NCBI GenBank assembly: GCA_963514005.1
Contig: OY740785.1
Coordinates: 60,822,001 to 60,886,000, forward strand
Length of the DNA stretch: 64,000 nt
Origin: Raja brachyura
Lineage: Eukaryota
Direction of reading: 5' to 3'
Position numbers and translations under genes: made by a program. Numbering within the stretch: the first letter of the stretch is position 1; every line of letters begins with the position of its first letter. This document shows, piece after piece, positions 14,701 through 52,028 of the stretch. The notes under the pieces are model-generated. The model saw nothing but the letters and a program-made list of their open reading frames with translations. It ran no database searches and was not told the DNA's origin.

Positions 14701-17700
14701 TGTGTTATATCTAGACTTTCAGAAGGCTTTCGACAAGGTCCCGCATAAGAGATTAGCATACAAACTTAAAGCACACGGTATTGGGGGTTCAGTATTGATG
14801 TGGATAGAGAACTGGCTAGCAGACAGGAGGCAAAGGGTAGGAGTAAACGGGTCCTTTTCAGAATGGCAGGCAGTGACTAGTGGGGTGCCGCAAGGCTCAG
14901 TGCTGGGACCCCAGCTATTTACAATATATATTAATGATTTGGACGAGGGAATTCAATGCAACATCTCCAAATTTGCAGATGATACCAAGCTGGGGGGTAT
15001 AGTTAGGTGTGAGGAGGATGCTTGGAGGCTGCAGGGTGATTTGGATAGGCTGAGTGAATGGGCAGATGCATGGCAGATGCAGTACAATGTGGATAAATGT
15101 GAGGTTATCCACTTTGGTGGCAAAAACATGAGGGTAGACTATTATCTGAATGGTGGCAGATTAGGTAAGGGGGAGATGCAACGAGACCTGGGTGTCATGG
15201 TACACCAGTCATTGAAAGTAGGCATGCAGGTGCAGCAGGCAGTGAAGAAAGCAAATGGTATGTTAGCATTCATAGCGAAAGGATTTGAGTATAGGAGCAG
15301 GGAGGTTCTACTGCAGTTGTACAGGGTTTTGGTGAGGCCACACCTGGAGTACTGCGTACAGTTTTGGTCTCCAAATCTGAGGAAAGACATCCTTGCCATA
15401 GAGGGGGTACAGAGAAGATTCACCAGACTGATTCCTGGGATGTCAGGACTTTCATATGAGGAAAGATTGGATAGACTCGGTTTGTACTCGATGGAATTTA
15501 GAAGATTGAGGGGGGATCTTATAGAAACCTACAAAATTCTTAAGGGGTTGGACAAGCTAGATGCTGGAAGATTGTTCCCGATGTTGGGGGAGTCCAGAAC
15601 AAGGGGTCACAGTCTAAGGATAAGGGGGAATTCCTTTAGGACCGAAATGAGGAAAACATTCTTTACACAGAGAGTGGTGAGTCTCTGGAATTCTCTGCCA
15701 CAGAAGGTAGTTGAGGCCAGTTCATTGGCTATATTTAAGAGGGCGTTAGATGTGGCACTTGTGGCTAAAGGGATCAGGGGGTATGGAGAGAAGGCAGGTA
15801 CGGGATACTGAGTTGGATGATCAGCCATGATCACATTGAATGGCGGTGCAGGCTCGAAGGGCCGAATGGCCTACTCCTGCACCTATTTTCTATGTTTCTA
15901 TGTTTCTAAACGTTTTTCACTGTACCTCGGTACACGCGACAATAAACTAAACTGAACTGAACTTAGAACATTTCATTCACTCAACTAGAACAAGTGGTAG
16001 ATACTCTTTGTTTTACTTTCATAGCGTATGTTTATGTTAAACTCTATCGTGTATTGTGTTCTTTTGTATTCGTATTGCTGTATGGTAACTCATATCTCAC
16101 TGTACCAATTGGTGCATGTGACAATAAATGTAATTTGAACTATGCCAATTTGTAACTAAATGGTCAACGGCTAACTGTAAAGTTTCAGACAGCTTTACTC
16201 TGAAGTGTGCAATGTTTTCATTGCTCTCTTTGTGAGGGCAAATATCATTAGAGATGTACACTGCAGAACACAACTGCATCCATGCCAGTCCATTATCTGG
16301 CAATACTTTTAGACAGTCACACTTTTGAGGAAGCAGAAACAAGCTGATCTACTTGTAGTGTCATTAGGGTTGTCTGAAGAGATCAAGCTCAGAAAAAATG
16401 AAAACCTGGTGAAAGGGGGAAAATAAAACTAAGAATTAATTTTATTAGTAACTAAATAGATTTGCCCCAGTGCAGGCATCACCAAAGGATTTGCCAACTG
16501 AGAATCCAATGATAACTGGTGTCTGGAAGGTTGTTGCCACTACATTATTCATACAACATAAAAAACATGTTCAAAAAATAAAGGTTTATTGAAGTTCCGT
16601 AATGCCATCAAGTACTTCTAAAAGTGTAAGCGTGGGTATTGTATGTATTCTCAAACCACCATCAATATTTCTGAAAATTTGCAACACTTAGTTGGAACAC
16701 AAACTTCCAATTGCCACACAGCTTTACTATTCACCTCAGTGGTTTCTTATAGTTTACTTCCTGGAGGCAAAAACCCACTGATCAGTGTGTTCCTAGCTGG
16801 GTCGGCCAGAGGCTTTGGAAGGAGAGAGTGCTGTAGCCACATGATACATTGCCCTGCTACCATTATTGTTATAAAAGCAGAAAATGTTGGAAATACTCAG
16901 CATATCCAGGCAGCTTCTTCAGAGAGAGTTAACATGTCAGGTCAACCTGAAGATGAACCACCTGGAGGCATCAGTCAAAATGCCACCCAACTGTTTCATT
17001 TGTTCAAAGACCATGATCAACCAGGGGATGTGACCAGAGTGTACAGAATGACATGCAGAGTTTTCTAACACAAGGTATACTTCCACAGCTAAAGAGCTAT
17101 CCTTTCCTATCTTATAATGAAGATTTATAAACTCAGTCTGTGGGATAAATGTTACTATATTAGCTTCTGGAAGTTCTATGATTATTGATTTAATACTTAC
17201 TTTTAGAGGATTCCATCCAATCAGTTGCAAACGGATTAAAGGATTCAGGATTTTTTGAAGACAGAGACCAATATAAGCATTGTAATATGAATCCGGAAAT
17301 TTCTCCCGCCACAGTTTAAACTTGGCAAAAATTTTGTCAAAACTGTAAAAGTCTTTATGTACATCCTGGAAAATCTTCCTGGATTCCTTCAGAATGTGAT
17401 CTATGTTAAATGACAAAAAGGTTTGTTCAAATAAGAGAAGGATTAAAAAAAAGCACAAAAGAGTTGGAACAAAATAAACATTAAAACCCAGCTGACAAGT
17501 TACAGATCAAAGCATAAAATATAAAATACACCTTATTGAGAATCTGTACCCAAACTGTATTTTATGGTTATTTAAGCATTAAGATTTTAGTTAAAAAAAA
17601 CAATTGCTAGTTCTAATTGTGCATCTCAAGGCACAGATGTTTGTGATATTTGGCAATTACCATGCCTGCTGCCTATACACCTGTCAATATTTTTTTGCAG

Positions 17701-20700
17701 CAGGAAAGAGATGATGCCTTATAGCACTACATGCACAGACAAATTTCATATGGTCTTTGCAGAAGAAAAGTATGACAATCTTAATTGATTATTTCCATAA
17801 CTTGAATATCAACAAAATGCTGCTTTGCAAAGTATGTGTGTCACCTAACTGCATTGAAACACAAGACATTTCATTAAAATGGAAAATAAGAAAGTGAAAT
17901 AGTACACATCCAACAGATCTGGCAGGCCAAATCCAGAAAACAATAATATGCTTACCTTCTTTGTCATGGAACTCAGATATCTCAGCTGGAGACATTTCAT
18001 CATCACTGGACAAGTGTTTGTGATGGTCTACTTCCTTGCCTGCCAATCTTCTTAAGTGTTCCTTATGAGCCCTAGGCAGCAAAAATATATGATTCAAATT
18101 TGTTATTTTCCACACGTAACTTCCCTATCAACTTTGGAAATGTATTAACTTAAATACCTTCTTGCCTCTCGTTTTTCAATTCTCTGCTGTAATAGTTCGA
18201 CGGAGTCCAAGTTGTTGGAGTCTTTGTTGCAACTGGTGATGTCATCTTCCTCTGAAAACACGAGTCAGTATATTGTAAATGCTTAAATATTGAAATTTGC
18301 CCAATTCATTAATTCATACTTAGCACCTGACAGTGCTGACACTTTTAAATAACACATTTAAAAATTATTTTATGCTTCCAGTATTCAACAATTTGTCTCT
18401 AAATCTACCAGCACACTAAATAAATAAATACGCAGAATTGTGGCTTCATGCCTTCCCACTTTTTTAGGATTGTACTGAAATATTACTATTTTTCAGTTAG
18501 AATTTATAACCCAATAAGCAGTTTCTTTAAAATTTGCTGAAAGTAATTATCCAAATCAAATTTCAACTGTAAAACTAAATTCAAAGAAGCACAAGAGCAA
18601 GATTTCAATAAAATGAATGCTCAAAATGACATAATGATTAAACTAACTTGATAGCTGCCAAATATCAGATGTTTCATCTTGAACATCATCCTGTCTACGC
18701 TGCAAGAGTTTTCTTGCCTGCTCCCGCAGTAACTGATGCAGTTCAGATTCCAGTTCATTGATGCGATGTATCTAAAAGAAATAATGTAAGTAAATGTCTT
18801 TCCTCTCCATCTCAAGCCAGGAATTATACTGCACAATATTGTTGCCGTACTATTTCTTGAATTTTATCGTCATAACTTCAACATCCTAACACACACACAC
18901 ACACATAATCTTTGCGAGGGAACAGATAGGTTTTACCTAAAACACAAATCCCACCAATAACTATTTTCATTATCTTTATTTCATGAAAGTCGAACTCAAG
19001 TACACACTGCACCAGTGTCCTGTTATGGCTTTGGACTCACACTTTGACTCTCCACAGCCACTGCAGCACATGCAATGCACAGAATAGGAGCAAAACTCAA
19101 TTTTCCTGAATCTGTGCAGCTCCAACAACACTTGATAAAACTCTTACCATCTGAGACATTCAGCCGATTTGATTGGAATTCAATCGATTTTCTAAAACAT
19201 TCCTTCCTTCTGAAATTCCATGGTCTTGGATGAAGTGTATACAAAATGCAATGCAGATTTTCAACCAGACTATACTGATCAATAACTACCATAAAGGAGC
19301 CAGGGACATTACTCCGCAGGGACACCATCATATACAAGTTCCCACTATATCCACACCATGTTGATTTAGAAATACATACTGGTCCTTCATCATCCCTGGG
19401 TTTAAACACTAGAGCTAACAGCAGTATGGGGATGCCTTCACAAGAAAGAGTGTATCAGTTCAGAAAGAGTTCAAAGATGTTACCCAATCTGCCGAGTACA
19501 TTCACCACCATTAGTTTATATTGCAGATCTCTACATTTAATTCTGCTGCTGCACTGCAAATTGATTCTTATTTTATATAGTCAAGCTGAATTAATTGGCA
19601 TGGATCATTCATGATTATCTTGGCTTTCCTCCAATATTCACCACTGAAGTTAATGAATTTGCAGATCCTGCACCATGAAGGGTCCAGCAATGCATCGTAT
19701 GGAAAATTATCTCTGAATAAGTTCACAACTTCCAGGTTCGACTGAACATGCTTGGAAATCCAAATTTGTTGGCATTTACATGGGTACAAGGCAGCTGGTC
19801 CAAATCTTACACATCATAGTACACTGACTTCAGTGGTGGGCAAATTAATGGAAAAGATACTTAGAGATAATATATAAGTATCTGGATAAAGAGGGTCTAA
19901 TTAGGAACAGTCAACATGGATTTATGCCTGGAAGGTCATGTTTGACTAATCTTCTTGAATTTTTTGAAGAGGTTACTAGGGAAATTGACGAGGGTAAAGC
20001 AGTGGATGTTGTCTATATGGACTTCAGTAAGGCCTTTGACAAGGTTCCTCATGGAAGGTTGGTTAAGAAGGTTCAACTGTTGGGTATAAATGCAGGAATA
20101 GCAAGATGGATTCAACAGTGGCTGAATGGGAGAAGCCAGAGGGTAATGGTGGATGGCTGTTTGTTGGGTTGGAGGCAGGTGACTAGTGGGGTGCCTCAGG
20201 GATCTGTGTTGGGTCCTTTGTTGTTTGTCATGTACATCAATGATCTGGATGAAGGGGTGGTAAATTGGATTAGTAAGTATGCAGATGATACCAAGATAGG
20301 GGGTGTTGTGGATAATGAAGAGGATTTCCAAAGTCTACAGAGTGATTTAGGCCAGTTGGAAAAATGGGCTGAAAGATGGCAGATGGAGTTTAATGCTGAT
20401 AAATGTGAGGTGCTACACCTTGGCAGGACAAATCAAAATAGGACGTACATGGTAAACGGTAGGGAATTGAAGAATACAGTTGAACAGAGGGATCTGGGAA
20501 TAACCGTGCATAGTTCCTTGAAGGTGGAATCTCATATAGATAGGGTGGTAAAGAAAGCTTTTGGTATGCTAGCCTTTATAAATCAGAGCATTGAGTATAG
20601 AATCTGGGATGTAATGTTAAAATTGTACAAGGCATTGGTGAGACCAAATCTGGAGTATGGTGTACAATTTTGGTCGCCCAATTATAGGAAGGATGTCAAC

Positions 20701-23700
20701 AAAATAGAGAGGGTACAGAGGAGATTTACTAGAATGTTGCCTGGGTTTCAACAGCTAAGTTACAGAGATAGGTTGAATAAGTTAGGTCTTTATTCTCTGG
20801 AGCGCAGAAGGTTAAGGGGGGGACTTGATAGAGGTCTTTAAAATGATGAGAGGGATAGACAGAGTTGATGTGGACAAGCTTTTCCCTATGAGAATAGGGA
20901 AGATTCAAACAAGAGGACATGACTTTAGAATTAACGGACAGAGGTTTAGGGGTAACATGAGGGGGAACTTCTTTACTCAGAGAGTGGTAGCGGTGTGGAA
21001 TGAGCTTCCAGTGGAAGTGGTGGCGGCAGGTTCGTTGGTATCATTTAAAAATAAATTGGATAGGCATATGGATGAGAAGGGTATGGAGGGTTATGGTATG
21101 AGTGCAGGCAGGTGGGACTAAGGGAAAAAAGTTGTTCGGCATGGACTTGAAGGGCCAAGATGGCCTGTTTCCGTGCTGTAATTGTTATATGGTTATAGCT
21201 TGTCTGTATGCCGTATTTTGGACATAGAAAAGTACAAATATGAACAGTTAACTAACTGTGAGTTAGGTCCCAGGCCTAATCACAAAACAATTTTCTAACA
21301 CACTTGTTGTACCTTTTCATTGAAGCAATTGGTGAGATTTTTAACATAGGTTCGCATTTCTTGATAAAACCTGTAACGAAGATTGGGGCCAGAAGCTGCT
21401 TCTAGATGTTCAATTGTGCATTGTGAACTCTCAGCAGATTCTTGAATCTTTTCGTGCTCACGACAATGGGACCGGTGAACTTCTTGCAAGGACTCCAGTC
21501 TGAAGAAAAGTTACCAAATAATTCACAACCCAGTTTTGAAATGAAGTCAAAATCATAAAATACAACAAAAGTACTGTGATTACTGTGTGCTTCTATATCA
21601 TTAACTAGGTTACTTCACAATCCATAATTTCTTCTGTGCACATATGTAGACTGCACATCAAAGGAAAATATTTACAAGCCAAAACTTAACATTATTAAAT
21701 GAAATTACATTTTGCAATTTGCTTTCCCACTGCAAGATAGTGTAATATGCTTGCTTTGTAGCCTATTTTAACTTAATAACTGGCTTTTGTAATTAGGTAG
21801 AAGTAAGGAAACAGTTAAAATTGTTCTTTATCAATTTTTATTAGATTAACAGTGCACAGAATAATATAGTTGATTGGTGTTTAGCTTCTGTGAAAATCTA
21901 TGCTGCTATGCTCCGAACCAGTATCGCCATTCACTGTGATCATCCACAATCAATACCCCATTCCCGCCTTCTCCCCATATCCCGTGACCGCTATCTTTCA
22001 GAGCTCCATCTAACTTTCTCTTGAAAGCATTCAGAAAATTAGCCTCCACTGCCTTCTGAGGCAGAGAATTCCTCAGATTCACAACACTCTGGGTAAAAAT
22101 ATTTTTCCTCATCTCCATTCTAAATGGATTACCCCTTATTCTTAAACTGTGGCCCCTGATTCTGGGCTCCCCCAACATCGGGAACATGTTTCCTGCCTCT
22201 AGCGTGTCCAATCCCTTAATAATATTAGATGTTTCAATAAGATCCCCTCCCAGCCTTCTAAATTCGAGTGTATACACACCCAGTCGCTCCATTCTTTCAA
22301 CATATGACAGTCCCGCCATCCAGGGAATTAGCCTCGCGAACTTATGCTTTACTCCCTCAATAGCAAGAATGTCCATCCTCAAATTTGGAGACCAAAACTG
22401 CCCACAATACTCCAGGTGTGGTCTCTCTAGGGCCTTGTACATCTGCAGAAGGACCTCTTTGCTCCGATACTCAACTCATCTTGTTATGAAGGCCAACATG
22501 CCATTGCCTACTGTACCTGCATGCTTACTTTCAGTGACTGATGAACAAGGACACCCACATTGATCCACATTATACTGCATCTGTCCACTCACCCAACCTT
22601 TCCAAGTCACTCTGCATCCTCATAGCATCCTCCTCACAGTTCATGCTGCCACCTAGCTTTATGTCATCTGCAAATTTGCTAATGTTACTCTTAATCACCT
22701 CATCTAAATCATTAATGTATATTGTAAATAGCTGCGGTCCCAACACCGAGCCTTGCGACTAGTCACTGCCTGCCATTCTGAAAGGGACCAGTTAATCCCA
22801 ACTCTGTTTTCTGTCTGCCAACCAATTTTCTATCCATGTCAGTACCCTATCCCCAATACCATGTGCTCTAATTCTGCCCACTAATCTCCTACGTGCAACC
22901 TTCTCAAATGCTTTCTGAAAGTCCAGGTACACTATATCCACTGGCTCTCCCTTGTCCTTTTTCCTAGTCACAGCCTCAATTAGATCAGAAGATTAGTCCA
23001 GAAGATTAGTTAAGCATGATTTCCCCTTCGTAAATCCATGCTGACTCGGACCGATCCTGTTATTGCTATCCAAATGTGTCGCTATTTCATCTTCTATAAT
23101 TGACTCCAGCCTCTTCCCCACCACCGATGTCAGGCTAACTGGTCTATAATTCCCTGTTTTCTCTCTCCCTCCTTTCTTAAAATGGGATAACATTAGCTAC
23201 CCTCCAATCCACAGGAACTGATCCTGAATCTATAGAACATTGGAAAATGATCACCAATGCGTCCATTATTTCTAGAGCCACTTAAGTACCCTGGGATGCA
23301 GACCATCAGGCCCTGGGGATTTATCAGCCTTCTGTCCCATCAGTCTACCCAACACCATTTCTTGCCCAATGTGAATTTCCTTCACTTCCTCTGTCACCCG
23401 AGGTCCTCTGGCCACTACTACATCAGGAAGTTTGTATGTGTCTTCCTTAGTGAAGACAGATCCAAAGTACCTGTTCAACTCGTCTGCCATTTCCATGTTC
23501 CCCATAATAAATTCACCTCTTTCTGTCTTCAAGGGACCCACATTTGTCTTAACTTTTTTTTCTTCTTCTTCACATACTTAAAGAAGAATTTACTATCTTC
23601 CTTTATATTCTTGGCGAGCTCACATTTGTACCTCATCTTTCCTCCCCATATTGCCTTTTTAGTTATCTTCTGTTGCTCTTTAATAGTTTCCCAATTCTCT

Positions 23701-32700: not shown

Positions 32701-33192
32701 AGCCCACTCTTCCAAAAGGCCCAAATCTCACTGTAGACTTTGAAAATCTACTTCATTATCCACAGCACCACCTTTCTTAGTGTCATCTGCATACTTACTT
32801 GTCCAATTTTCCACCCCATCATCTAGATAATTGATGTTCATGACAAACAACAGTGGACCCAACACAGATCCCTGAGGAACCCCACTGGTCACCGGCTGCC
32901 ACCCTGACAAACAGCCATCCACCATTACGCTCTGGCATCTCCCATTCAGCCACTGTTGAATCCATCTTGCTACTCCACCATTAACCCCCAAAGATTGAAC
33001 CTTCTTAACCAACCTTCCATGGGGAACCTTGTCAAAGGCCTTACTGAAATCCATATAGACAACATCCACTGCTTTACCCTCATCAATTTCCCTAGTAACC
33101 TCTTCAAAAAATTCAAGGAGGTTTGTCAAACATAACCTTCCAGGCACAAATCCATGTTGACTGTTCTCGATCAGACTCTGCTTATCCAGATG

Positions 33193-33231
<39 letters not shown>

Positions 33232-36200
33232 CAGGTCTATAACAGGTCTATAATTGCTAGGTTTATTCTTTGAACCCTTTTTAAACAATGGAACAACATG
33301 CGCAGTACGCCAATCCTCCGGCACTATTCCTGTTTCTAATGACATTTGAAATATTTCTGTCATAGCCCCTGCTATTTCTACACTAACTTCCCTCAATGTC
33401 CTAGGGAATATCCTGTCAGGACCTGGAGACTTATCCACTTTTATATTTTTCAAAAGTGTCAGTACTTCCTCCTCTTTGAATCTCATAGTTTCCATAGCTA
33501 CTCTACTTTTTTTCCTTACCTCACAGTTCAATATCCTTCTCCTTGGTGAATACCGAAGAAAAAAAAAATGTTCAATATCTCCCCCATCTCTTTTGGCTCT
33601 GCAGATAGCTGTCCATTCTGGCTCTCTAATGGTCCAATTTTATCCCTCGTTATCCTTTTGCTATTAATATAGCTGTAGAAACCCTTTGGATTTACTTTCT
33701 AACTATCGTTTATTTTATTTGTTGAACTAAGTACTGTGTTCACAAAACTGCTGTGCTGCTGCAAATAAAGAATTTCATATGACAATAAAAGTCTCTTGTC
33801 ATGGGATATTCGAGTTCAAGAAAGGTATCATGCATATCCAGGTTCTATTTAATTAATATCACCTTTAGACATGATACCTCGAAGAACTGAAGTCTTACCA
33901 ATGTCCTCTGCCATTTTCTGTCTTTGTGTTTTGAGTGCCTTGGTGAAGTCTATTCGCTTCTCATGATCATCAAGATCATCGTCACTTATTGGAGATTCTT
34001 CATCAGGGACTGAAGTATCATCTCTTGCTGAGTGAAGGGGAATGAAGTCAGCTTGCGCTCTTGCCCTCTGTCGCTTTTTACGCGCAGCCTGAATGTACCG
34101 AGCATCTGGAATCTCACCTGCACTGAACAAAAATAACAGTGAGGTCAAGAATCATTTTATATATATATAAAAATATATTGCCGTCAATACTAAAAATCCA
34201 TAATGCAGCATTTTACAGCTAAGAACATTCAATCTTTGTTGGCTCACGTCTTTGTCAGGAATCCATATTATTGTTTAAAAGGGTATGATGCATTTTTGCT
34301 TACTGACATAACATGCCCTTGAATGAACATTGTAAAACATGCCCTTGAATGATCGGATTACAATTATTCTTACTTTGACACTTTTATAATTTGGAACTTT
34401 ATAAAGATGCAAGCTATATAACTTTGTGCAACAAAATGCAAAGAACTAGCCAATCTGATAACAGAAAACACAAGTATTGTCATTCGTCCATTTTTCACAA
34501 TGAACTAAGTTATAGAAACACTAGCTTGCATTTAGTGACGTTAACACATTCACACATTGGCATCAAGCCAAAAAGTGCAAACTTTACAGGGGCCGACATG
34601 AGTCAAGATTCAAGAGTAAAGATCCTATAGCGGAGCAAGATAGACCACTTCTGCTAAATGCAATGGGCTGACGTGTAGTACGGAACGGAACGTGGGCCTT
34701 TTTTCCCATCCATTTCAGTAACCCAACCCCAACCAGACTCGCAGTGTAATCAACGTTGCGGGGGAACAGTTTGTGTTAATACATTATAATTCTGAAAATG
34801 AGGAGAAGATTTTCACTAAAGAACTTTTATTTTTACGAGGATGTTTCCATAACCGGCTTCCGTCTCCGCACGGTTACGGAAATGCGGCCTAAAATTACCT
34901 ATGAATCTGCCCATGACTGTACTACGTATTTTTCATCGAGTGGACTATCTTGCTTGCTATAGGATCTTTGGTCAACAGTCAAGAGAGTTTTATTGTCATG
35001 TGTCCCTGACAGGACAATTAAATTCTTGCTTTGCTTCAGCACAACTGAACTACAAAACAGATCAGTGTGTCCATATACCATTATATACGTAAATACACAC
35101 ATCAATAAATAAACTGATAAAGTGCAAATAACAGATAAAGGGGTATTATGTTCAGAGTTTTGTCTGAGCCAAGTTTAATAGCCTGATGGCTGTGGGGAAG
35201 TAGCTATTCCTGAACCTGGTTGTTACAGTCTTCAGGCTCCTGTACGTTCTACCTGAAGGTAGCAGGGAGATGAGCGTGTGGTCAGGATGGTGTGGGTCCT
35301 TCATGATATTGCCAGCCTTTTTGAGGCAGCGACTGCGATAGATCCCCTCGATAGAAGGGAGGTCACAGCCGATGATGGACTGGGCAGTGTTTACTACTTT
35401 TTGTAGTCTTTTCCTCTCCAGGGCAGTCAAATTGCCGAACCAAGCAACGATGCAACCGGTCAGCATCTCTACTGTGCACCTGTAGAAGTTAGAGTCCTCC
35501 TTGACAAGCCGACTCTCCGTAATCTTTGCTGGAAGTAGAGGCGCTGATGAGTTTCCTTAAAAATTGCATCAGTGTTCTCGGACCAAGAAAGATCTTCAGA
35601 GATGTGCACGCCCAGAAGCTCTTGACCCTTTCAACCATCAACCCGTTGATATAAACAGGACTGTGGGTCCCCATCCTACTCCTTCCAAAGTCCACAATCA
35701 GTTCCTTGGTTTTGCTGGTGTTGAGGGCCAGGTTATTGTGCTGCCACCATATGGACAGTCACTCGATCTCCCTTCTATACTCTGACTCATCCCCATCAGT
35801 GATACGTCCCACAACAGTGGTGTCGTCAGCAAACTTGATGATGGAATTCGCACCATGACCGGCTACGCAGTCATGAGTATAGAGTGAGTACAGCAGGGGC
35901 TGAGCATATGACCTCAAGATGTTTCAAATTGTATCACTGACAAAGAAAATGTTTTGAAGTGGTAACCATTTAAATAATGCTGACAGCTGCCTTATGCAAT
36001 AAAGGTCACATACATGGTAATGTGAAAATGAACAAATAATGTTTCAGTTATGTTAATTAATAGATTAATTCTGGATTTTGCATCAGAGATAATTCTTCTG
36101 CCATTCTTCAAAATAGTATCATGGTATATTTTATGTCCGCTTGAGAATGTAGACAATAGGTGCAGGAGTAGGCCATTTGGCCCTTCGAGCCAGCACGGCC

Positions 36201-42200: not shown

Positions 42201-45200
42201 TGTAAAGCCAGCAAAGTCAGATCAAGGATAGTCCATGAGTCCCCAAAGAGGTAGATAGTAGTTCAGTACTTCTCACTGGTTGTGGTTGCCTGATAACAGC
42301 TGGGAGGAAACTGTCCCTGAATCTGGTGCTGTGTGTTTTCACACTTCCATACCTTTTACCCGATGGAAGAAGGGAAAAGAGGGTGTGGCCAAGTTGAGAC
42401 TCATCCTTGATCATGCTGCTAGCCTAGCTGAAGCAGCGTGAGGTATAAATTGAGTCATTAGAAGTGAGGTTGGTTTGTGTGATGGTCTGGGCTGCATCCA
42501 CAATTTACTGCAATTTCTTGCGGTCTTGGATGGAGCTGTTCCCAAACCAAGCTGTGATACACCCTGATAAATGCTGTCTATAATGCATCGGTAGAAGTTG
42601 GTGAGAGTTGTAGGGGACATGGCAAACTTCCTAACACTTCTAAGAAAGTAGAAGACCCCGAGTGCTGTCTGTTTGGAGTTTGCATTTTTACATGTTAGTT
42701 TCCTCCAGTTTCCTCCCATGTGCCAGAGGTGACAGTGTAAGTTAATTGGCCTCTGTAAATTGCCCCTAATGTGTGGGCAGTGGATGAGGAGGGATAACAT
42801 GGAACTAGTGTGAACCGGTGATCGCTGGTCAGCGTGGACTCAGTGAGCCGAAGGGCCTGTTTCCATTACCATAACTCTAAACTAAAATAGTAAGATTAAA
42901 CAAGAACTTACCAGTTTGAAGTTTGATCTTTATTTTATGAGGAGTTGCGATGAGGGATTTCGTGAAGACCCCGCCAGGCACGCATGCGCGACATTCTTCA
43001 AAGCAGCGGTGTGGAATCACAGATCACAAACCGAAGATAGTAAGATTAAAACTTGACCATACCAGTTGAATATATAATAGAGGGTTGGGAGCGGAGGGCA
43101 CGAAATCCCTCATCGCAACTCCTCATAAAATAAAGATCAAACTTCAAACTGGTAAGTTCTTGTTTAATCTTACTATTTTACTTCGGAGTCACGTGAGTGA
43201 CTTCGTGAAGATTTCAAAGCTCTGTGATTACATGCCCTGGACCACGCCCATGCTCACACACTGCCGTAATTCTGATGGAGGAAGTATGTTAACGTATTTC
43301 AGACTTGAACAAGCTGAAAAAATAATAACATTTGTTAATACAACAATAACCCCCTGAACTCGGGGACAAACGTTTAGGGAACAGCACTTAAAACTGAATC
43401 CGCCAACGTTGCGGGAGCGGTTATAAATCAGTTATAAAACCGCTGAAGTGTAGATTCACTGGCCCAGCTCGCTATTGCGAGGCCAAAATCCATGAACACC
43501 GCCATAGTCCTTGCCACTGATGTGGATGCAGCCCTGATAGAATGACATTTAAAATATTAGTGTCTTACCTGCTGCACCGAATACCACCTCGTGTCATCTG
43601 GAGATAGTCTGCACAATCACCCTGTGACGTGGGTTACCATGGCTGAAACAGACCCGTCTCCATACATCTGATGCCCATTTGCAGACGTGTAGTCCCAGGT
43701 CTGTGTAGTGTAAGTAATTCTTCTGTAAAGAAGTTACCTTAGTATGGTCCGATCATTCTATCCAGGTTTAATTCCTGTAAAGTCATGACCTGTTGAGCTG
43801 TGTTCAGTGCCATTATCATAAGCACTTTGAAGGTGAGTAAGTCCATCATAGGCGACCAGCTCCTGAGGAGGGTCAACACTACCTCATCCCAGTCCAATCT
43901 AGCGATAGGACGACAATGCACTCCTGGCACTGTATACAGCACTGTAACTGAGGGACTCGTCATAATGACGACCCATGAGTATTCCAGCACCTTGGAGAGT
44001 ATAGCAGATATGTAGATGGTCTAGGTCCGACTACAGAAACCTCCCATATCCTTATGTAGGCGAGGTACTGCTTCCTACTGGACTCTCTCTGCACGATGCT
44101 GTTTGACATCCATGGTCCTTTATGTTGCAGAGCCTGGTTGCGTATCCTGCAGCACCTGTCTGATGAAGCAGAATGGGGAAAACATAGAAACCCCGCATTT
44201 CCCCCCAACGTAGCGAAAACGCGTCCATCGCCACTGCCCCAGGATCTAGTTCTCAAGACATATGTTAGTATCCAATGGCTCAACCTGGACGCAAAGAGGT
44301 CGAAATCTGGTATTCCATATTAGGCTATAATTTTAGCAGATATTTGGAGGTTCAATCTACTTGATGTCGTTATTAATACTTGTGACCTGGTGTCCGCCAC
44401 TATATTGAGCTTATCCAGAAGGTACATAGCTGAACTCAAATTTCTTTCAATCCACCAGAGCCAAATTAATGTTTCCAATTCATCCCAAGATATTAACTTG
44501 ACGCCACCCATAAGGTTTAATATGCCTCCTCAGTGGTATTATTTTGAAGACGAACATACGTATGCTGCAGATTAGTACATTAATGCGCAGCCCTGGACAT
44601 GCTCCCAGCATTTCTAAACAGTTTATACCTTGTGATTGAAGAAAGTAGACTCATGCAATCCCATTTACCGCCCCACCTGGAATGGTGTCAGTAGTTCCCC
44701 AGCCCTCGGCGCTTGCGTCGGTTTGTAACGCGACTACTAGGTTTGATGTAATGATGGGATTTAACAATCACAACCATTGCTAATCCACTGTTGTACCTCA
44801 ATTATGCTTGGATTGGCAGCTGCTTAAGCTCGTAATTGTAAGCATTCGCTATACATGCCGAGATTTTGCTTATTCACCCAAGCTTTGATAGCGTAACGAC
44901 CCAATTATGTGGCTGGAATGTAGCTCCAATTTACCCATAGCTTAGCAGCATGTCGAAAGTCAGTTCCCTGGCGCAAGCAAGGCTGTTACATGAATCTATT
45001 ATGGCTATAGCTCTGTTCCCTGGATAGTGACAAACAGAGCCGCAGAATGTATGTACCTCCCTCCTACTTGTGAGGTTATGCATGCAGCACTTCCAAGAGA
45101 ACCAGGCCCCCTTACCTCCATGGTTACCGGCGAGCCTGACGTTCTGGTTTCTAGTATTCCTTCTTTGCTGGGTGCTGCTCGATCGCCTCGGTAAATCCTT

Positions 45201-48200
45201 GTTCCTGCAGCTGGTGTGTGGTGAGGTAGTCTATGCTGGCTCTGCCCTAACAAGGCTTCTGCTGTTGGGGAGCTGGTGCGGATGTGTTCTTGATGGCCTC
45301 GTCTTTGACCGGCTTGGGCAGGTCCTCCCCAAACAGCTGTCTTGGAGGTGTGGTGGAGGTACGACCCAACCCAGCGAATTCAGGGTTAATGTCGGGCCGG
45401 ATGGAGCTCTGACTAAAACAGTTTCCCGAAGTGTGCTACACAGGAGGGCTAGAGCATCCTGCTGCTCTGCGGATGCACCTGCCCCATCGAGGGTCCTGAT
45501 GAGCGCCGTGATGCCCGACGCCAATAGCTTCAGAATTTTCTGCCTCTTCATCTCTTGTTCCCTCGCATTGGAAATTATGTTCCCTCAGATGGCTGAGTCG
45601 ACCCTCGGGACGTTCAGGGTAACACAGTTTCCAGGATCCTTGTACTTCTCCGTGTTTCTGAAAGCACCTGGTCTAGGAACTGGTGTGTCGTCAAGAATTA
45701 ATACTTACTGCCAATGTAGAGTGCAGCGGTACCCCTGAAAACAGGTTTCGGATTTTCGACACCTCCAACTTCTTCTTCTGGATCGAGAGCAGTGGGCTCT
45801 TCTGCTGCCGCTGCTTTGTCAAATCGGCCATCTGTTGAATGCTAGCACTCCCGATGGACGAAGGTGAGATTGAAGGTGGTGGTCATGATCCGAACTCCCA
45901 GACCGCTGAGACTCCTGCTCTTGCCGACCCAGGTCCTGCTGATATAGTTGCTCCACCATTAGCTCCATCCTAGCCATGCGACCGCTGCCGCTACACACGG
46001 ACAACAGGTCGACTTCCCCAGGCCCTGATGAGTCGCTGGGGCTTCTGCCAGTAGGTCACACCTCAACGAAGTGGCTGACAGGTACTCGTCAGCACCCGCT
46101 CCTGCGGGGCTGAACGACTTCCGCACGGACAACCCGCTAGCCCGGCATCCCTCGGACCTTAGCGGCCTCTCTACCTGACGAGCAGGCAGAGGAAAGGAGT
46201 CGGAACCGGTCCCCAATACCGGTCTGTGGTCCGTGCAGGCACACCGTCACCCTCACCCCCAGGGGTCTGTGACGGCGCTTGGCTGGCTTTACCCGCAGCA
46301 ACGGGATTGCCTAACCGTATTCTGCTGCCACCGGTCTGCGCTCCGGCAGCCTGTTCCGGTGCAGTGCCGGTACCTCCTGCTCCCGCAGGCTGTACGACTC
46401 CTGCACGGACATACCGCTAGTCCGCCGTCGTTTGGACCTAAGCGGCACCTCTGCCTGGTGGGAAGGCAGAGGGAAGGATCGGTACCGGTCCCCAATACCG
46501 GCTCCGCTGTCCGTGCAGGCTTGCCGTCACCCTTAACCACACGGGTCCATGAGGGCGCATAGCCGGCGTTACCCGTAGCAATGGGGTTGCCTAGCCGTAA
46601 ACTGCTGCCACCGGTCTGCGCTCCGGCAGCCTGTTCCGGTGGACACCGGTACCTCCTGCTCCTGCAGGGCTCCCCGATTTCCAGCAGGTCCATCACCGGC
46701 CTGCAGTCTAGCAGGTTACCCCCGGCGGTATGTCGATGCCTCCCACTGCAGCGGGGCATGACCTGTGCGCAGCTCTCCCCATCTCTGATACCTGCATAGT
46801 AGGAGAGACAAAACGAGCCGCCGAGCGGGTCACATGTTTACGCACCTTTGCCCCACAGTCACTATGCATAGGTGAGAGTGGTAGGGAGTCCAGGTCTTGC
46901 CCATCCTGCTCCCACGCGGTGCTCCACCATTTTGCGGCCCCATGGTCAGCCGTGGTGGAGAGACGGGTCCTGGCTGCGCAGGGCTCCCCGACCTCCGCGT
47001 TCTTCTGGAATGGTGGCCGCTGACTCCCATCTGAAGTCGCACGGCCCTTGGAGACCTGCTTCGCTGCCTTCATTCTGGTCTCCATCCCTCTGTAAGCAAA
47101 CTCGAATACAGACGCTTAGCTATTCAAAGTTAGTATCTTACCTGAGGGTCTTTAAGAAGTATGGTGACCAGCCTCTCATGCTTTAATAACTTTTATATGT
47201 TGGCAGTCGGAACTTCTTGAAGACAATGCATACCCTAGAGTAGCAGGGCACTTTAATGTAGCCAGGCCACAGAATCCCTGCAGTTGCAGTGTGGAGTCAG
47301 GCTGCCTTTGCTTGCAAGCCTGCTTCTCCCTGAATGCCAGCAACCCGCAGAACCCCTGCAGGCTGCGGTGTAGAGTCGGGCTGCTGCCCATGGCAAGCAC
47401 AGCAAGCCCTACACCACATGCACACCGCCAGCCCGCAGTATCACCCCCGCGGGCTGTGGTGTAGAGTCGGGGCTGCCGCTCCGCCGTTGAAACTTCTGAC
47501 GGCGAGCCTGCAAGCCCGACTCCTGCATGCACACCGCCAGCCCGCAGTATCCCCCGCGGCTGCAGTGTAGAGTCGGGGCTGCCGCTCTACCGTTCCTACT
47601 TTGAACGGCGAGCCTGCAAGCCCCACGCCTACATGTACACCGCCAACCCGCGGTGTTCCCCGCGGGCTGAGGTGTAGAGTCGGGGCTGCCGCGCTGCCGT
47701 CGCGAACTTTTGACAGCGAGCCGGCAAGCCCCATTCCTTTTCGCCCGCGGCGTCCCCTGCGGGCTGCGGTGTGGAGTCGGGCTGCCTCTGCCGTCCTCCG
47801 CCGGCGAGTGTATGAGCCCGGACCCTCCTGGGTCAACGGGCTTCCCGACTCCAACTATTGGAGCCGCCGCTGACTGCCGCAGCAGTCAGATCCGAGGCGG
47901 CTGCGAGACCCTGCGACAGGGCCACCTAGAAGAAAAAGACCGCAGGTTAGTGTTTTACTTACCTGCAGGTCCCAGCAGTAGAGGAGCAACGCTCCTCCCT
48001 GCCTGTCGCTCGCATGCGGTCGACGATATGTCGCGCATGCGTGCCTGGCGGGGTCTTCACGAAGTCACTCACGTGACTCCGAAGTAAAATCTACATCCAC
48101 AACTAAACATATGGTTAAGAGAAAACTAAGCCATTAACAATGCAAATAAGCACTTCCATTGCTGCTGGAAGATAGAGTGATTGTGATATTTCAGATGTTC

Positions 48201-51200: not shown

Positions 51201-52028
51201 CAAAACTGCACACAATACTCCAGGTGTGGTCTCACTAGGGCCCTGTACAACTGCAGAAAGACCTCTTTGCTCCTATATTCAACTTCTCGTGTTATGAAGG
51301 CCAACATTCCATTAGCTTTCTTCACTGCCTGCTGTACATACATCAGGGGCAGACAGAAACAGAGGCTACCCCTCACAGATCAGACACTCTGAGGATTGCA
51401 CTGGAAGGCCAGTGCGATTTTTTGTACTTAAATCTCTGGGATGCTACCCGAGCCCACAAACCTCTGACTGATTAAAAAGTCTGAGCTTCAACAAAAAATG
51501 GTGAAAATACGCTTCCTGTGGAAAGAGAAATGTTTCCGATTCTGAAGAAAGGCCTTCTACCTGAAATACGGCTGATGTCTGGCCTGCTGAATGTTTCCAG
51601 CATGTGCTGTTTAAAAAAAACAGACTGCCAGTTTCACTTTTCATCGTTGACAGATCTGCCACAAGCAATGTGTTACCTTCTCTGTCACAGCCGAAGCTCA
51701 GTAGATTGTTGTCGTGGACCCGAGCTCCACTGGGACCTCTTTCAGCAGCTTCCCGTACATCTTTTTTAAATTCGATTCCGGTCTCCGCACCTTCCTCGCT
51801 CTCCGAGGCTGAGCTGGGGCTAGTGCAATAGGCCCGAGCAGGACTGCTGGGAGCAGGGGAGGGTTTGGAGGTGCAGGCGAGCCCCCGGTTGCGGCCGCGA
51901 CGCGTTGCAGCAGCCGCCGCCGCCACACACAAGCTCTGCTGTTGCTGCCCAGGCGCTCCCTCGCTATCCTCCTCGCTCGACTGACTCTTCCTGCGGCGGA
52001 ATGTCCGCTTCGAACTCTTGCGGAACAT
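1847..52028 (-). CDS. GCFC2: GC-rich sequence DNA-binding factor 2 (intron large complex / Ntr2-like); 17 coding exons in window, final exon(s) beyond left edge
   Basis: Hand-spliced exons join in frame with GT-AG sites (2489 nt). Peptides match the GCFC family and GCFC2 in particular: [85 protein letters not shown]. Confidence 0.93.
2567..2713 (-). CDS. GCFC2: GCFC2 exon 16 (147 nt)
   Basis: TAG|[12 protein letters not shown]...[10 protein letters not shown]...EKCEM|GTAAAT. Confidence 0.94.
3271..4215 (-). mobile_element. Penelope-like element remnant with decayed hammerhead core, interrupted by a CR1 3' tail (~3700-3806)
   Basis: [14 protein letters not shown]...PLVLAFHP peptide; pLTR-like end shared with the 62.3-kb copy; CTGAAGA..GAAAC on minus at ~3362-3390. 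Confidence 0.75.
4508..4574 (-). CDS. GCFC2: GCFC2 exon 15 (67 nt)
   Basis: TAG|.[22 protein letters not shown]|GTGAGA. Confidence 0.92.
4839..5623 (+). mobile_element. Non-autonomous Helitron A
   Basis: A|TC start into (TCTA)n(TCCA)n; 3' hairpin GGACCC-AAC-GGGTCC, then CACTTGGTCCAG (CTAG variant); 5' boundary uncertain. Confidence 0.65.
5624..5932 (+). mobile_element. Non-autonomous Helitron B with internal (TGTC)n
   Basis: TCTAT start; hairpin GCAACCC-CAAC-GGGTTGC (5904-5921); ends CTAG|T. Confidence 0.75.
6763..7020 (+). repeat. ~40-bp minisatellite (CCCACACATGTGACTAGGGGGACACTGTACCACT) inside Helitron C
   Basis: About 7 visible tandem units. Confidence 0.85.
7740..8886. repeat. ~1.1-kb C/T-rich low-complexity tract
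   Basis: Plus strand is strongly C/T-dominated and nearly G-free. Confidence 0.9.
9005..9081 (-). CDS. GCFC2: GCFC2 exon 14 (77 nt)
   Basis: TAG|[25 protein letters not shown]|GTAAAT. Confidence 0.93.
9400..11265 (+). mobile_element. Rex1/Babar-like LINE, decayed RT region to 3' tail
   Basis: [14 protein letters not shown]...[21 protein letters not shown]; GAPQ..VLSPLL motif region; tail TGACAATTAAAC; many stops and frameshifts. Confidence 0.85.
11390..11511 (-). CDS. GCFC2: GCFC2 exon 13 (122 nt)
   Basis: CAG|..[21 protein letters not shown]...SKASQ|GTAGAG. Confidence 0.93.
11871..12021 (-). CDS. GCFC2: GCFC2 exon 12 (151 nt)
   Basis: TAG|[18 protein letters not shown]...[11 protein letters not shown]|GTAATT. 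Confidence 0.92.
12657..14253 (+). mobile_element. Full-length decayed Tc1-family transposon with long IR/DR-type TIRs
   Basis: TIR (C/T)AGTGCCCTCCATAATGTTTGGGACA at both ends after TA; ~200-bp inverted arms with an inner repeat CCATAATGTTTGG; transposase remnants [25 protein letters not shown]. Confidence 0.92.
14388..15907 (+). mobile_element. Young 5'-truncated CR1 LINE (subfamily A) with uninterrupted RT ORF
   Basis: ORF 14327-15811: [33 protein letters not shown]; tail (CTATGTTT)n. Confidence 0.96.
17201..17400 (-). CDS. GCFC2: GCFC2 exon 11 (200 nt)
   Basis: TAG|..[13 protein letters not shown]...[18 protein letters not shown]...IGWNPLK|GTAAGT. Confidence 0.95.
17956..18071 (-). CDS. 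GCFC2: GCFC2 exon 10 (116 nt)
   Basis: TAG|.[38 protein letters not shown]|GTAAGC. Confidence 0.92.
18158..18251 (-). CDS. GCFC2: GCFC2 exon 9 (94 nt)
   Basis: CAG|..EDDITSC...[10 protein letters not shown]|GTATTT; followed by an 86-nt intron. Confidence 0.88.
18648..18771 (-). CDS. GCFC2: GCFC2 exon 8 (124 nt)
   Basis: TAG|[33 protein letters not shown]...QLS|GTTAGT. Confidence 0.92.
19828..21198 (+). mobile_element. 5'-truncated CR1 LINE (subfamily B, HER1-like)
   Basis: ORFs 19924-20841 and 20825-21121 (YADD), split by an extra G in a G7 run; 3' end GGCCTGTTTCCGTGCTGTA shared with V-SINE tails. Confidence 0.95.
21313..21499 (-). CDS. GCFC2: GCFC2 exon 7 (187 nt)
   Basis: CAG|.[11 protein letters not shown]...[19 protein letters not shown]|GTAC. 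Confidence 0.93.
21910..24855 (-). mobile_element. CR1 LINE (subfamily A): end of ORF1 plus decayed ORF2 (APE endonuclease + RT)
   Basis: GITETWL, VIYRPPN, GGSDHN (endonuclease); [16 protein letters not shown] (RT); ORF1 end [11 protein letters not shown] near 24790. Confidence 0.94.
25192..25304 (-). CDS. GCFC2: GCFC2 exon 6 (113 nt)
   Basis: CAG|[10 protein letters not shown]...[15 protein letters not shown]|GTATC. Confidence 0.9.
27132..27408 (+). mobile_element. Full-length tRNA-derived V-SINE (HE1-like)
   Basis: A box GGTGGCGCAGCAG, B box GGTTCGATCCC (27186-27196), V-core, tail TATCTCTAAAACTAAA; related copies at ~12360-12620, 25680-25950, 26550-26930(-), 56570-56890(-), 57195-57490. 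Confidence 0.85.
27545..27645 (-). CDS. GCFC2: GCFC2 exon 5 (101 nt)
   Basis: CAG|..INESDDES...[17 protein letters not shown]|GTAGGA. Confidence 0.9.
28175..28480 (+). mobile_element. HE1-like V-SINE
   Basis: Degenerate A/B boxes, core GTGGGTTTTCTCCAGGTGCTCCGGTTTCC, CR1-derived tail. Confidence 0.8.
29367..31447 (+). mobile_element. Tc1-family transposon (right TIR lost), inserted in a Rex1 LINE and carrying an L2 insertion
   Basis: TA|CAGTGCATTCAGAATGTATTTAGACCCC; transposase from 30430 (MKTKELS) with [20 protein letters not shown], ending KGASTKY* at 31441. Confidence 0.92.
29581..30251 (+). mobile_element. L2-clade LINE 3' fragment
   Basis: [38 protein letters not shown]; tail AATAAAAG(TGACT)n. 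Confidence 0.92.
31862..33700 (-). mobile_element. CR1 LINE (subfamily B, HER1-like)
   Basis: ORFs 32728-33531 and 32078-32605 ([20 protein letters not shown]); closely similar to the 19.8-kb copy. Confidence 0.94.
33899..34117 (-). CDS. GCFC2: GCFC2 exon 4 (219 nt)
   Basis: CAG|[28 protein letters not shown]...DDHEKRIDF...RQKMAEDI|GTAAGA. Confidence 0.92.
34617..34970. mobile_element. MITE, probably hAT-type
   Basis: TIRs AAAGATCCTATAGC..GCAAGATAG.CCACT at both ends; flanks TTCAAGAG / GTCAACAG resemble an 8-bp TSD, but the site is itself a short tandem repeat. Confidence 0.7.
34971..35910 (-). mobile_element. Rex1/Babar-like LINE 3' part
   Basis: [11 protein letters not shown]...[29 protein letters not shown]; KFADDTT region near 35820. 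Confidence 0.88.
36148..36802 (-). mobile_element. CR1 LINE 3' fragment (subfamily A)
   Basis: [13 protein letters not shown]...[15 protein letters not shown] plus 3' UTR. Confidence 0.93.
37738..38940 (+). mobile_element. Internally deleted Ty3/Gypsy LTR retrotransposon
   Basis: 5' LTR TGTA...TACA (37738-37946); PBS TGGCGTCAGAAGT (tRNA-Leu-like); gag remnant from 38027; partial 3' LTR ending TTTACA at 38940; 5-bp TSD GTTTG. Confidence 0.88.
38970..38997 (+). ncRNA. Minimal hammerhead-ribozyme core in a Penelope-derived repeat (repeat extends to ~39065)
   Basis: CTGAAGA-A-GGGTC-TT-GACCC-GAAA-CG-TC; activity not demonstrated. Confidence 0.6.
39547..40682. mobile_element. pogo/Tigger-like non-autonomous DNA element with nested inserts
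   Basis: Degenerate TIRs AGTAAATCCTCTTTTTAATGGACC / GGTCCGTTACAACAAGGGTTTACT; subterminal TTGGTTATAGCGGA repeats. Confidence 0.6.
40731..40758 (+). ncRNA. Minimal hammerhead-ribozyme core in a Penelope-derived repeat (~40705-40822)
   Basis: CTGAAGA-A-GGGTC-TT-GACCC-GAAA-CG-TC, identical core to 38970. Confidence 0.6.
41050..41205 (-). CDS. GCFC2: GCFC2 exon 3 (156 nt, phase 1-1, acidic)
   Basis: TTTTAG|..[24 protein letters not shown]...[17 protein letters not shown]|GTTTGG; open and in phase, but low-complexity with a weaker donor. Confidence 0.7.
41232..41850 (+). mobile_element. Non-autonomous retroposon with a Rex1-type 3' tail (partial second copy at ~40370-40555)
   Basis: Shared head ATGGCTGCC..GCCA.CAG; internal repeats GACTTTAACATCA; tail TGACAATAAAAGACCTTTGAAACCTTTGAA. 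Confidence 0.55.
42140..42655 (-). mobile_element. Rex1/Babar-like LINE 3' fragment
   Basis: [29 protein letters not shown]; [10 protein letters not shown]. Confidence 0.8.
42655..42883 (+). mobile_element. V-SINE whose tail received the DIRS insertion
   Basis: Core TTTCCTCCCA and tail GCCGAAGGGCCTGTTTCC...CTCTAAACT. Confidence 0.75.
42884..48089 (-). mobile_element. DIRS1-type tyrosine-recombinase retrotransposon; termini intact, coding region decayed and RT deleted
   Basis: ITR pair 42959-42994 / 48028-48063; ICR 43099-43211 complementary to both ends; gag [17 protein letters not shown]; RNase [10 protein letters not shown] and MGG...NIVADTRS; MT-like DLFASRL and DAFSLRW..FYVFP; [10 protein letters not shown]...[11 protein letters not shown]. 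Confidence 0.93.
48213..48323 (-). CDS. GCFC2: GCFC2 exon 2 (111 nt, phase 1-1)
   Basis: TAG|..[16 protein letters not shown]...VITK|GTAAAC. Confidence 0.82.
50683..51341 (-). mobile_element. CR1 LINE 3' fragment (subfamily A)
   Basis: [16 protein letters not shown]...LGESRTRGH plus 3' UTR. Confidence 0.92.
51677..52028 (-). CDS. GCFC2: GCFC2 coding exon 1 (352 nt)
   Basis: ATG 52028, [23 protein letters not shown]...[10 protein letters not shown]; donor AAG|GTAACA; lies in a CpG island. Confidence 0.88.

Follow-up and report, generated by a model that had tools for sequence, protein, structure and literature searches.

How a retrotransposon that has lost its reverse transcriptase (RT) comes to have flawless ends, and near-identical relatives elsewhere in its genome, is the question raised by a DIRS1-like element of Raja brachyura (assembly GCA_963514005.1, contig OY740785.1). 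The element lies in a stretch of 64,000 nucleotides (positions 60,822,001 to 60,886,000 of the forward strand; called the window below, and the reference for all coordinates), and its parts are listed in Table 1. Very probably the element is a young member of a long-lived DIRS1-like lineage in which RT was lost once and no gene is still open; intact DIRS families most likely copy this lineage in trans, and one of them, family A, is the likely helper and the likely partner in an exchange of loop sequence near the 3' end. An initial annotation of the window had described three mismatch-free complementary pairs, and all of them were recovered: 42884-42964 with 43099-43179 (81/81), 48054-48089 with 43176-43211 (36/36), and the inverted terminal repeats (ITRs), 42959-42994 with 48028-48063 (36/36). 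The internal complementary region (ICR), which had been read as the end-to-end junction, does spell the right end fused to the left end with AAAA common to both (43099-43211); as in DIRS1-like elements, it lies near the 3' end and pairs with both termini, its two halves overlapping at AAAA. Both termini paired perfectly with the copy's own ICR in 39 of 40 copies of the young burst to which the element belongs (N1), and pairing was imperfect in old copies.

The DIRS1-like order of gag, RT-RNase H-methyltransferase (MT) and tyrosine recombinase (YR) is kept in the relics, with the RT core absent. No Y-x-D-D motif occurs in any of the six frames of the element, as first noted, and when compared with the pol of an RT-bearing relative (706 amino acids, YLDD at residue 280) the match begins at residue 342, in agreement with the reported jump of the pol frame to post-RT sequence. 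Pairwise alignment gave a deletion of 734-735 nt near 45040 relative to three of five relatives, and a split or unplaced one relative to the other two. The damage described for the gag, RNase H, MT and YR remnants amounts to 13 in-frame stops in the well-aligned relics, together with many frameshifts of 1-2 nt, the exact count of which varies with the alignment. When RT-bearing relatives of the same genome served as queries, tblastn detected the relics at 30-74% identity; a Pfam search with 12 stop-to-stop pieces of the element found no DIRS domain, and the RT-bearing relatives gave RVT_1, weak Dam and Phage_integrase matches. An open pol with YLDD or YIDD and an open YR, which define an autonomous element, are both lacking. 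A splice origin was considered for the RT deletion and for interior indels and was rejected in both cases: the ends of the deletion are not GT-AG in the alignments, and no indel of at least 25 nt between the window copy and 22 others has GT-AG ends. A stop-free antisense frame of 235 amino acids (45031-45738, plus strand) runs over the gag relic, with no function indicated.

The element is multicopy, its RT-junction 39-mer occurring 170 times exactly, which rules out single-copy status. A search with the 3' 517 nt of the element, in which 40 of 2387 candidates were scored (all at 100%), yielded 39 siblings in addition to the window copy, and all 39 were the same 5.0-5.2 kb element at other sites, with main-match identities of 98.6-99.9% and unrelated flanks. 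All 13 stops were present in 38-39 of the 38-39 informative young siblings, leaving no sibling with intact open reading frames among them, and the same RT junction was found in 66 of 67 aligned RT-less copies, the remaining copy having a further deletion. Such copies are spread over more than 25 contigs, so that, as in a non-autonomous family, many dispersed copies share inactivating lesions. An ICR 53-mer occurred 1255 times in total, and its first 100 matches represented 64 elements on contig 1. When these were classified by hand count (52 fetched, the other 12 assigned by an adjoining junction match or by the sibling set), 40 belonged to the RT-less lineage, 21 were RT-bearing and 3 were other elements. 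Scaling from this census gives about 500 RT-less copies, and a second estimate, from a leader-array motif with 1340 matches (41 elements per first 100 matches), gives about 550; some 800 elements in all are estimated to carry this ICR.

The lesions are nested by age. All 13 stops are common to N1 and to every informative copy of a second burst, N2, and 11 of 13 are present in all three older copies (L155, L160 and L169), which keep 80-nt and 84-85-nt pieces missing from the window copy. The two oldest RT-less elements (L222n and L223n, with 82% and 84% interior identity, respectively, each beside a family-A copy) have the same RT junction but share only 5/9 and 0/9 of the stops tested, which indicates that RT was lost first and that the other lesions were added stepwise during continued copying. 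Shorter deleted derivatives of 1.7-4.9 kb with both or most end signals were also encountered (L171:4727-6576, L093:5620-8825, L090:about 4900-9824, L164 and L177); several of them carry the same hairpin units as the leader described below and may be further non-autonomous families.

Median pairwise distances are 0.25% within N1 (40 copies) and 0.49% within N2 (11 copies), and 3.5% between the two; besides these two young bursts, the lineage includes older copies, whose identity falls as low as 82%. A tree was built from 28 interiors, with young siblings thinned to two rows; in it the RT-less elements form one ladder-shaped clade (100% bootstrap), sister to the RT-bearing families A and A' (100%). 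The path from the root of this clade to the window copy is about 0.17 substitutions per site, compared with 0.03 on the oldest copy's own branch, as expected from repeated copying. Ratios of nonsynonymous to synonymous substitution rates (dN/dS) were 0.60-0.99 in nine RT-less pairs and 0.72-1.03 in four deeper pairs, and 0.08-0.26 in nine pairs of RT-bearing copies, a tenth pair being saturated. Judged by these ratios, the RT-less interior is decaying near-neutrally; the relics are free of purifying selection while cis elements are kept, the ICR of young and middle-aged copies being 97-100% identical to that of family A.

The initial annotation had proposed that a defective lineage, damaged before the present insertion, is copied in trans by an autonomous partner. 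The shared lesions in near-identical, dispersed copies support this proposal, its mobilisation step being presumed from them. Candidate partners are present in the same genome. In family A, the frames of gag, pol (with YLDD) and YR are all open in three of the eight stretches fetched, the ICR of the element is identical (113/113) to that of five of seven stretches scored, and the outer 5' 36 nt are identical (36/36) in six of the seven stretches in which both ends were located, although the interiors are only about 70% identical; the family thus provides an autonomous partner with matching cis elements, and it contains a trio of copies 0.26-0.5% apart, as young as N1 and N2. The search for an intact partner suggested in the initial annotation does turn up RT-bearing families whose ICR and termini match those of the element exactly or almost so, but since several of these share the ICR at 96-100% identity, the ICR alone cannot name one. 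Family C and others, the first families found with an intact YR, and family B were each rejected as closest partner, with ends 89-97% and interiors only 56-70% identical to those of the element. Young copies in A, D, C and B indicate that several families were active recently. More generally, this genome houses at least four RT-bearing DIRS families that include young copies with largely open frames; their ICR and 3' end are near-invariant, although their interiors differ by 30-45%.

The loop that adjoins the ICR is more discriminating. At 16 diagnostic columns of this 104-nt segment (deletion columns scored singly), the two oldest RT-less copies are of the A' type at 15 of 16, L155 and L169 have 10 A and 6 A' states, and six younger RT-less copies, the window copy included, have 14 A and 2 A' states. 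When each indel run was instead counted once, as an event, the six younger copies differed by 0-2 events from the young A copy closest to them and by 11-13 from A', and the two oldest differed by 10-13 from young A and by 4-7 from A'. At 43057 and 43076, L155 and L169 match old A copies, and the younger RT-less copies match young A. The interior of the element, by comparison, is A'-like (74 A' versus 20 A states of 121 sites). From the oldest to the youngest copies the loop passes from the A' type through old A to young A, over an interior that remains A'-like, and the conflict is significant in both directions, the approximately unbiased (AU) test rejecting a single RT-less clade for the loop (p = 9e-5) and the loop grouping for the interior (p = 1e-11). 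Recombination with family A is the simplest reading of this conflict; convergence is less simple, as it would need identical deletions, and the loop states common to A and RT-less copies include 5-nt and 2-3-nt deletions. Exchange of a short end segment between the RT-less lineage and family A appears, from the alignments, to have taken place more than once, the direction of the exchange not being established.

Several observations weigh against this account. The ITR adjoining the loop is not of the A type, so an exchange needs two crossovers round a patch of about 100 nt, and the youngest A trio has loop changes that are absent from the window copy. The loop alignment is short, at 104 nt, and its entire early state rests on the two oldest copies. 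One RT-bearing A' pair had a dN/dS of 0.38. Siblings chosen by 100% identity at the 3' end favour young copies, and the contig-1 census, while less biased, is limited to one contig. Other RT-bearing families are also young (median distances of 0.93% in D, 1.3% in C and 1.7% in B); because D in addition shares the ICR at about 97% identity, the most recent burst could have had a helper other than A. Neither a transcript nor cDNA of the element was seen, so that every RNA step is inferred.

The most serious alternative, which we regard as possible but rather doubtful, is that mobilisation in trans is promiscuous and open to whichever young DIRS family shares this ICR (D, B or C), the exchange of the A loop being a by-product of recombination between similar sequences that confers nothing. 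In its favour, the ICR and 3' end are 96-100% identical across A, A' and D while the interiors of these families are only 67-74% identical to the element, and family D, four of whose nine copies have three open frames, is young. Against it, the loop tracks family A through two successive states (the old-A letters of L155 and L169, then the young-A letters) while remaining 22-27 events from D throughout. Copying at the DNA level, by recombinase excision, circle replication and reinsertion with no RNA step, is improbable. In its favour, no RNA evidence was seen, the GT-AG ends sought in indels are missing and the two intron-like leader motifs persist in copies; yet it would have to explain why copy number has risen on balance by hundreds, why the path along the lineage is some five times the length of the branch leading to an old copy alone, and why the element has retained an ICR that in DIRS-1 serves a step after reverse transcription (PMC7192593). 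That the element is semi-autonomous and still supplies a piece of protein, for which the 235-residue antisense frame could be cited, is very unlikely: the longest coding-strand frame beginning with ATG is 156 amino acids long, dN/dS is near 1, and intact gag genes that are GC-rich also contain antisense frames of comparable size. Segmental duplication or misassembly of one decayed insertion, suggested by the very high identity among copies, is refuted by the flanks of 38 copies, which differ from the fifth or sixth base outward, the spread over contigs, the existence of an empty site and the nested subfamilies of differing age.

Copying in trans by intact DIRS families, with A as the likely helper, can be set out along the lines of the DIRS-1 model. 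The RT-less element would be transcribed, its RNA would be copied by helper Gag and RT, the ICR would restore both ends, which would explain the perfect end pairing of every new copy, and the copy would be inserted by the helper recombinase; for the loop, template switching between co-packaged RNAs would be one possible route and gene conversion another. The initial annotation had taken regeneration of the ends from the ICR through a circular intermediate as established. In Dictyostelium DIRS-1 the ICR is indeed essential after reverse transcription, and RT acts in trans and needs the ICR, but the circle is a model: the cDNA observed was mostly linear and inverse PCR gave no junction (PMC7192593).

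The leader of the element is about 1 kb long, compared with about 195 nt in family A, and contains a tandem array of 106-nt units that, like the 280-nt duplication in the gag relic, the initial annotation had not listed. Units of the array occurred in 30 of 152 loci scanned; those examined lay in RT-less elements, and none lay in an RT-bearing one. The array folds far more stably than shuffled sequences (z = -8.15, 0/100 shuffles as stable), and with 25 units in register 88% of cells pair. Covariation was not above that of shuffles (two-sided change in 1 of 31 pairs; 443 of 500 shuffles as high), so selection on the structure is not shown, and a search of Rfam with the array gave no match. Two intron-like motifs stand one on either side of the array in the RT-less element; RT-bearing families have an intron-like motif (GTAAG..AG) just before the gag ATG, longer than the 37-nt motif (first 200 nt of L203, L211, L146, L183 and L179). 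We tentatively propose, as a possibility somewhat short of even, that the lineage descends from an A'-like ancestor, later changed host family and recaptured the current A loop at least twice, since the loop of about 100 nt would be a DIRS1-like helper-specificity signal (for priming, packaging or end restoration), and that the 106-nt array, seen in RT-less elements alone, would serve as another means of competing for helper proteins.

Table 1. Features of the RT-less DIRS1-like element, in window coordinates
Feature	Position	Strand	Remarks
Whole RT-less DIRS1-like element, young burst N1	42884..48089	-	5206 nt; ends set by 38 sibling flanks and an empty site in contigs from two runs
3' terminus	42884..42994	-	right ITR 42959-42994 plus extension 42884-42964 complementary to ICR
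Loop between ICR and right ITR	42995..43098	-	young family-A type here; family-A' type in oldest RT-less copies
ICR, 113 nt	43099..43211	-	spells end-to-end junction
YR relic	43377..44100	-	4 in-frame stops, several deletions and frameshifts
Relic of RT C-terminus, RNase H and MT	44150..45023	-	6 in-frame stops
RT-deletion junction (about 735 nt including RT core gone)	45030..45065	-	from alignments to RT-bearing relatives
gag relic, broken	45230..47085	-	internal 280-nt tandem duplication 46108-46668
Second intron-like motif, 52 nt	47091..47142	-	directly before relic gag ATG near 47085; predicted from sequence
Tandem array of 106-nt GC-rich units	47300..47800 (array 47402-47738)	-	3 full and 2 partial units, two hairpins per unit
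First intron-like motif, 37 nt	47924..47960	-	GTAAGT, CTAAC, pyrimidine tract, AG; predicted from sequence
5' terminus	48028..48089	-	outer 36 nt complementary to ICR; 48028-48063 complementary to right ITR

The flanks of 38 siblings have A at the first left junction base in 33 cases and T to the right of AAAA in 37, with similarity fading further out. This pattern fits a recombination event inside an AAAAT core that adds no further duplication, comparable to the elements with an ATT junction, which likewise lack a target-site duplication (PMC3266345). An empty site was found in one contig each from runs X1 and X4, which join 42882 to 48085 at unique-flank depth and skip 5202 nt, the shorter side having only 24 and 44 bases, respectively, and the runs possibly being from another species; runs X3 and X10 gave no contig spanning the insertion site. 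Contigs from runs X1, X4, X5 and X9 (four differently coded organisms) cover 29-30 of the 30 bins of 43200-46000, including the RT-junction bin, which suggests that the RT-less lineage is shared among related species; contig depth was not taken as copy number, and the contigs listed for these four runs include no long one across the RT junction. DIRS elements in this genome often lie end to end or nested, sometimes three in a row (L091/L092 (G000:C41), L090 (C1), L093 (C33), L222, L223 and L186), which fits a target core identical to the junction of the elements themselves.

The window copy lies within the tail of what is presumably a CR1/L2-like long interspersed nuclear element (LINE) repeat (about 42430-42885). 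It is flanked, on the minus strand, by a GCFC-domain exon (17192-17338; PF07842, E = 2.8e-7) and a probable first exon (about 51729-52028), which we take to resemble GCFC2/PAXBP1; given one exon on either side, the element is likely co-oriented within an intron of that gene. Atlas and PDB searches with the neighbouring exon gave no match. Long frames at 14324-15811, 19849-20841 and 32728-33639 are presumably, from their motifs, RTs of CR1/L2-type LINEs.

Non-autonomous DIRS elements are already known; what is new here is the age-linked change of the loop, which points to recombination with the likely helper, family A. Among the known cases, TOC1 is of the split-direct-repeat (PAT-like) type rather than the ITR/ICR type, and zebrafish DIRS-N1 is non-autonomous by Repbase naming. 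Chlamydomonas TOC1 is, like the present element, a non-autonomous, non-coding element of DIRS order that amplifies, with no helper tracking seen in the portion of the source cited (PMC9940879), and DIRS-N1 is named in PMC5400779. A close structural match is with the DIRS1-like elements with a short conserved ITR (Piednoel 2011, PMC3266345), which share the ITRs, the right extension, the two overlapping ICR halves, the ATT-type junction, the gene order and, in AcaDIRS2 (Table 3 of that paper), a conserved 36-nt ITR; unlike those elements, as far as that account describes them, the present one has its RT core deleted, all frames dead and a leader of about 1 kb with a tandem hairpin array. Dictyostelium DIRS-1 shares an ICR that pairs with both ends, and its RT acted in trans on a construct from which the coding sequence for GAG, RT and RNase H was absent (Malicki 2020, PMC7192593). 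That was a laboratory construct and gave no resistant clones, whereas here a natural lineage has persisted through about 17% sequence change.

Outside the DIRS elements, wheat RLC_Angela offers full-size elements with degenerate coding regions, whose interiors are monophyletic, whose terminal sequences cluster with those of autonomous partners, and which have changed partner (Wicker 2021, PMC9744471); those are Copia elements in which whole long terminal repeats (LTRs) track the helper, and here the element is of the tyrosine-recombinase class and the tracking patch is about 100 nt. Non-autonomous pararetroviruses of grasses likewise show homogenisation of non-coding regulatory sequence with a partner by region-specific recombination, but they are plant viruses and not genomic retrotransposons (PMC5491270). 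No report of a full-length RT-less DIRS1-like lineage swapping end sequence with a helper was found in a literature search that lay outside Repbase Reports, most subscription journals and supplements, so Repbase or Dfam may already list the family under a name. The priming of reverse transcription in DIRS elements and the selection of their RNA are described as open questions (PMC7192593). A natural parasite free of coding constraint reveals which cis sequences are required: the two termini and the ICR, to which a loop that tracks a single helper family can apparently be added. Helper tracking, known from plant LTR elements, would thereby extend to tyrosine-recombinase retrotransposons of a cartilaginous fish, and a specific 100-nt segment becomes testable.

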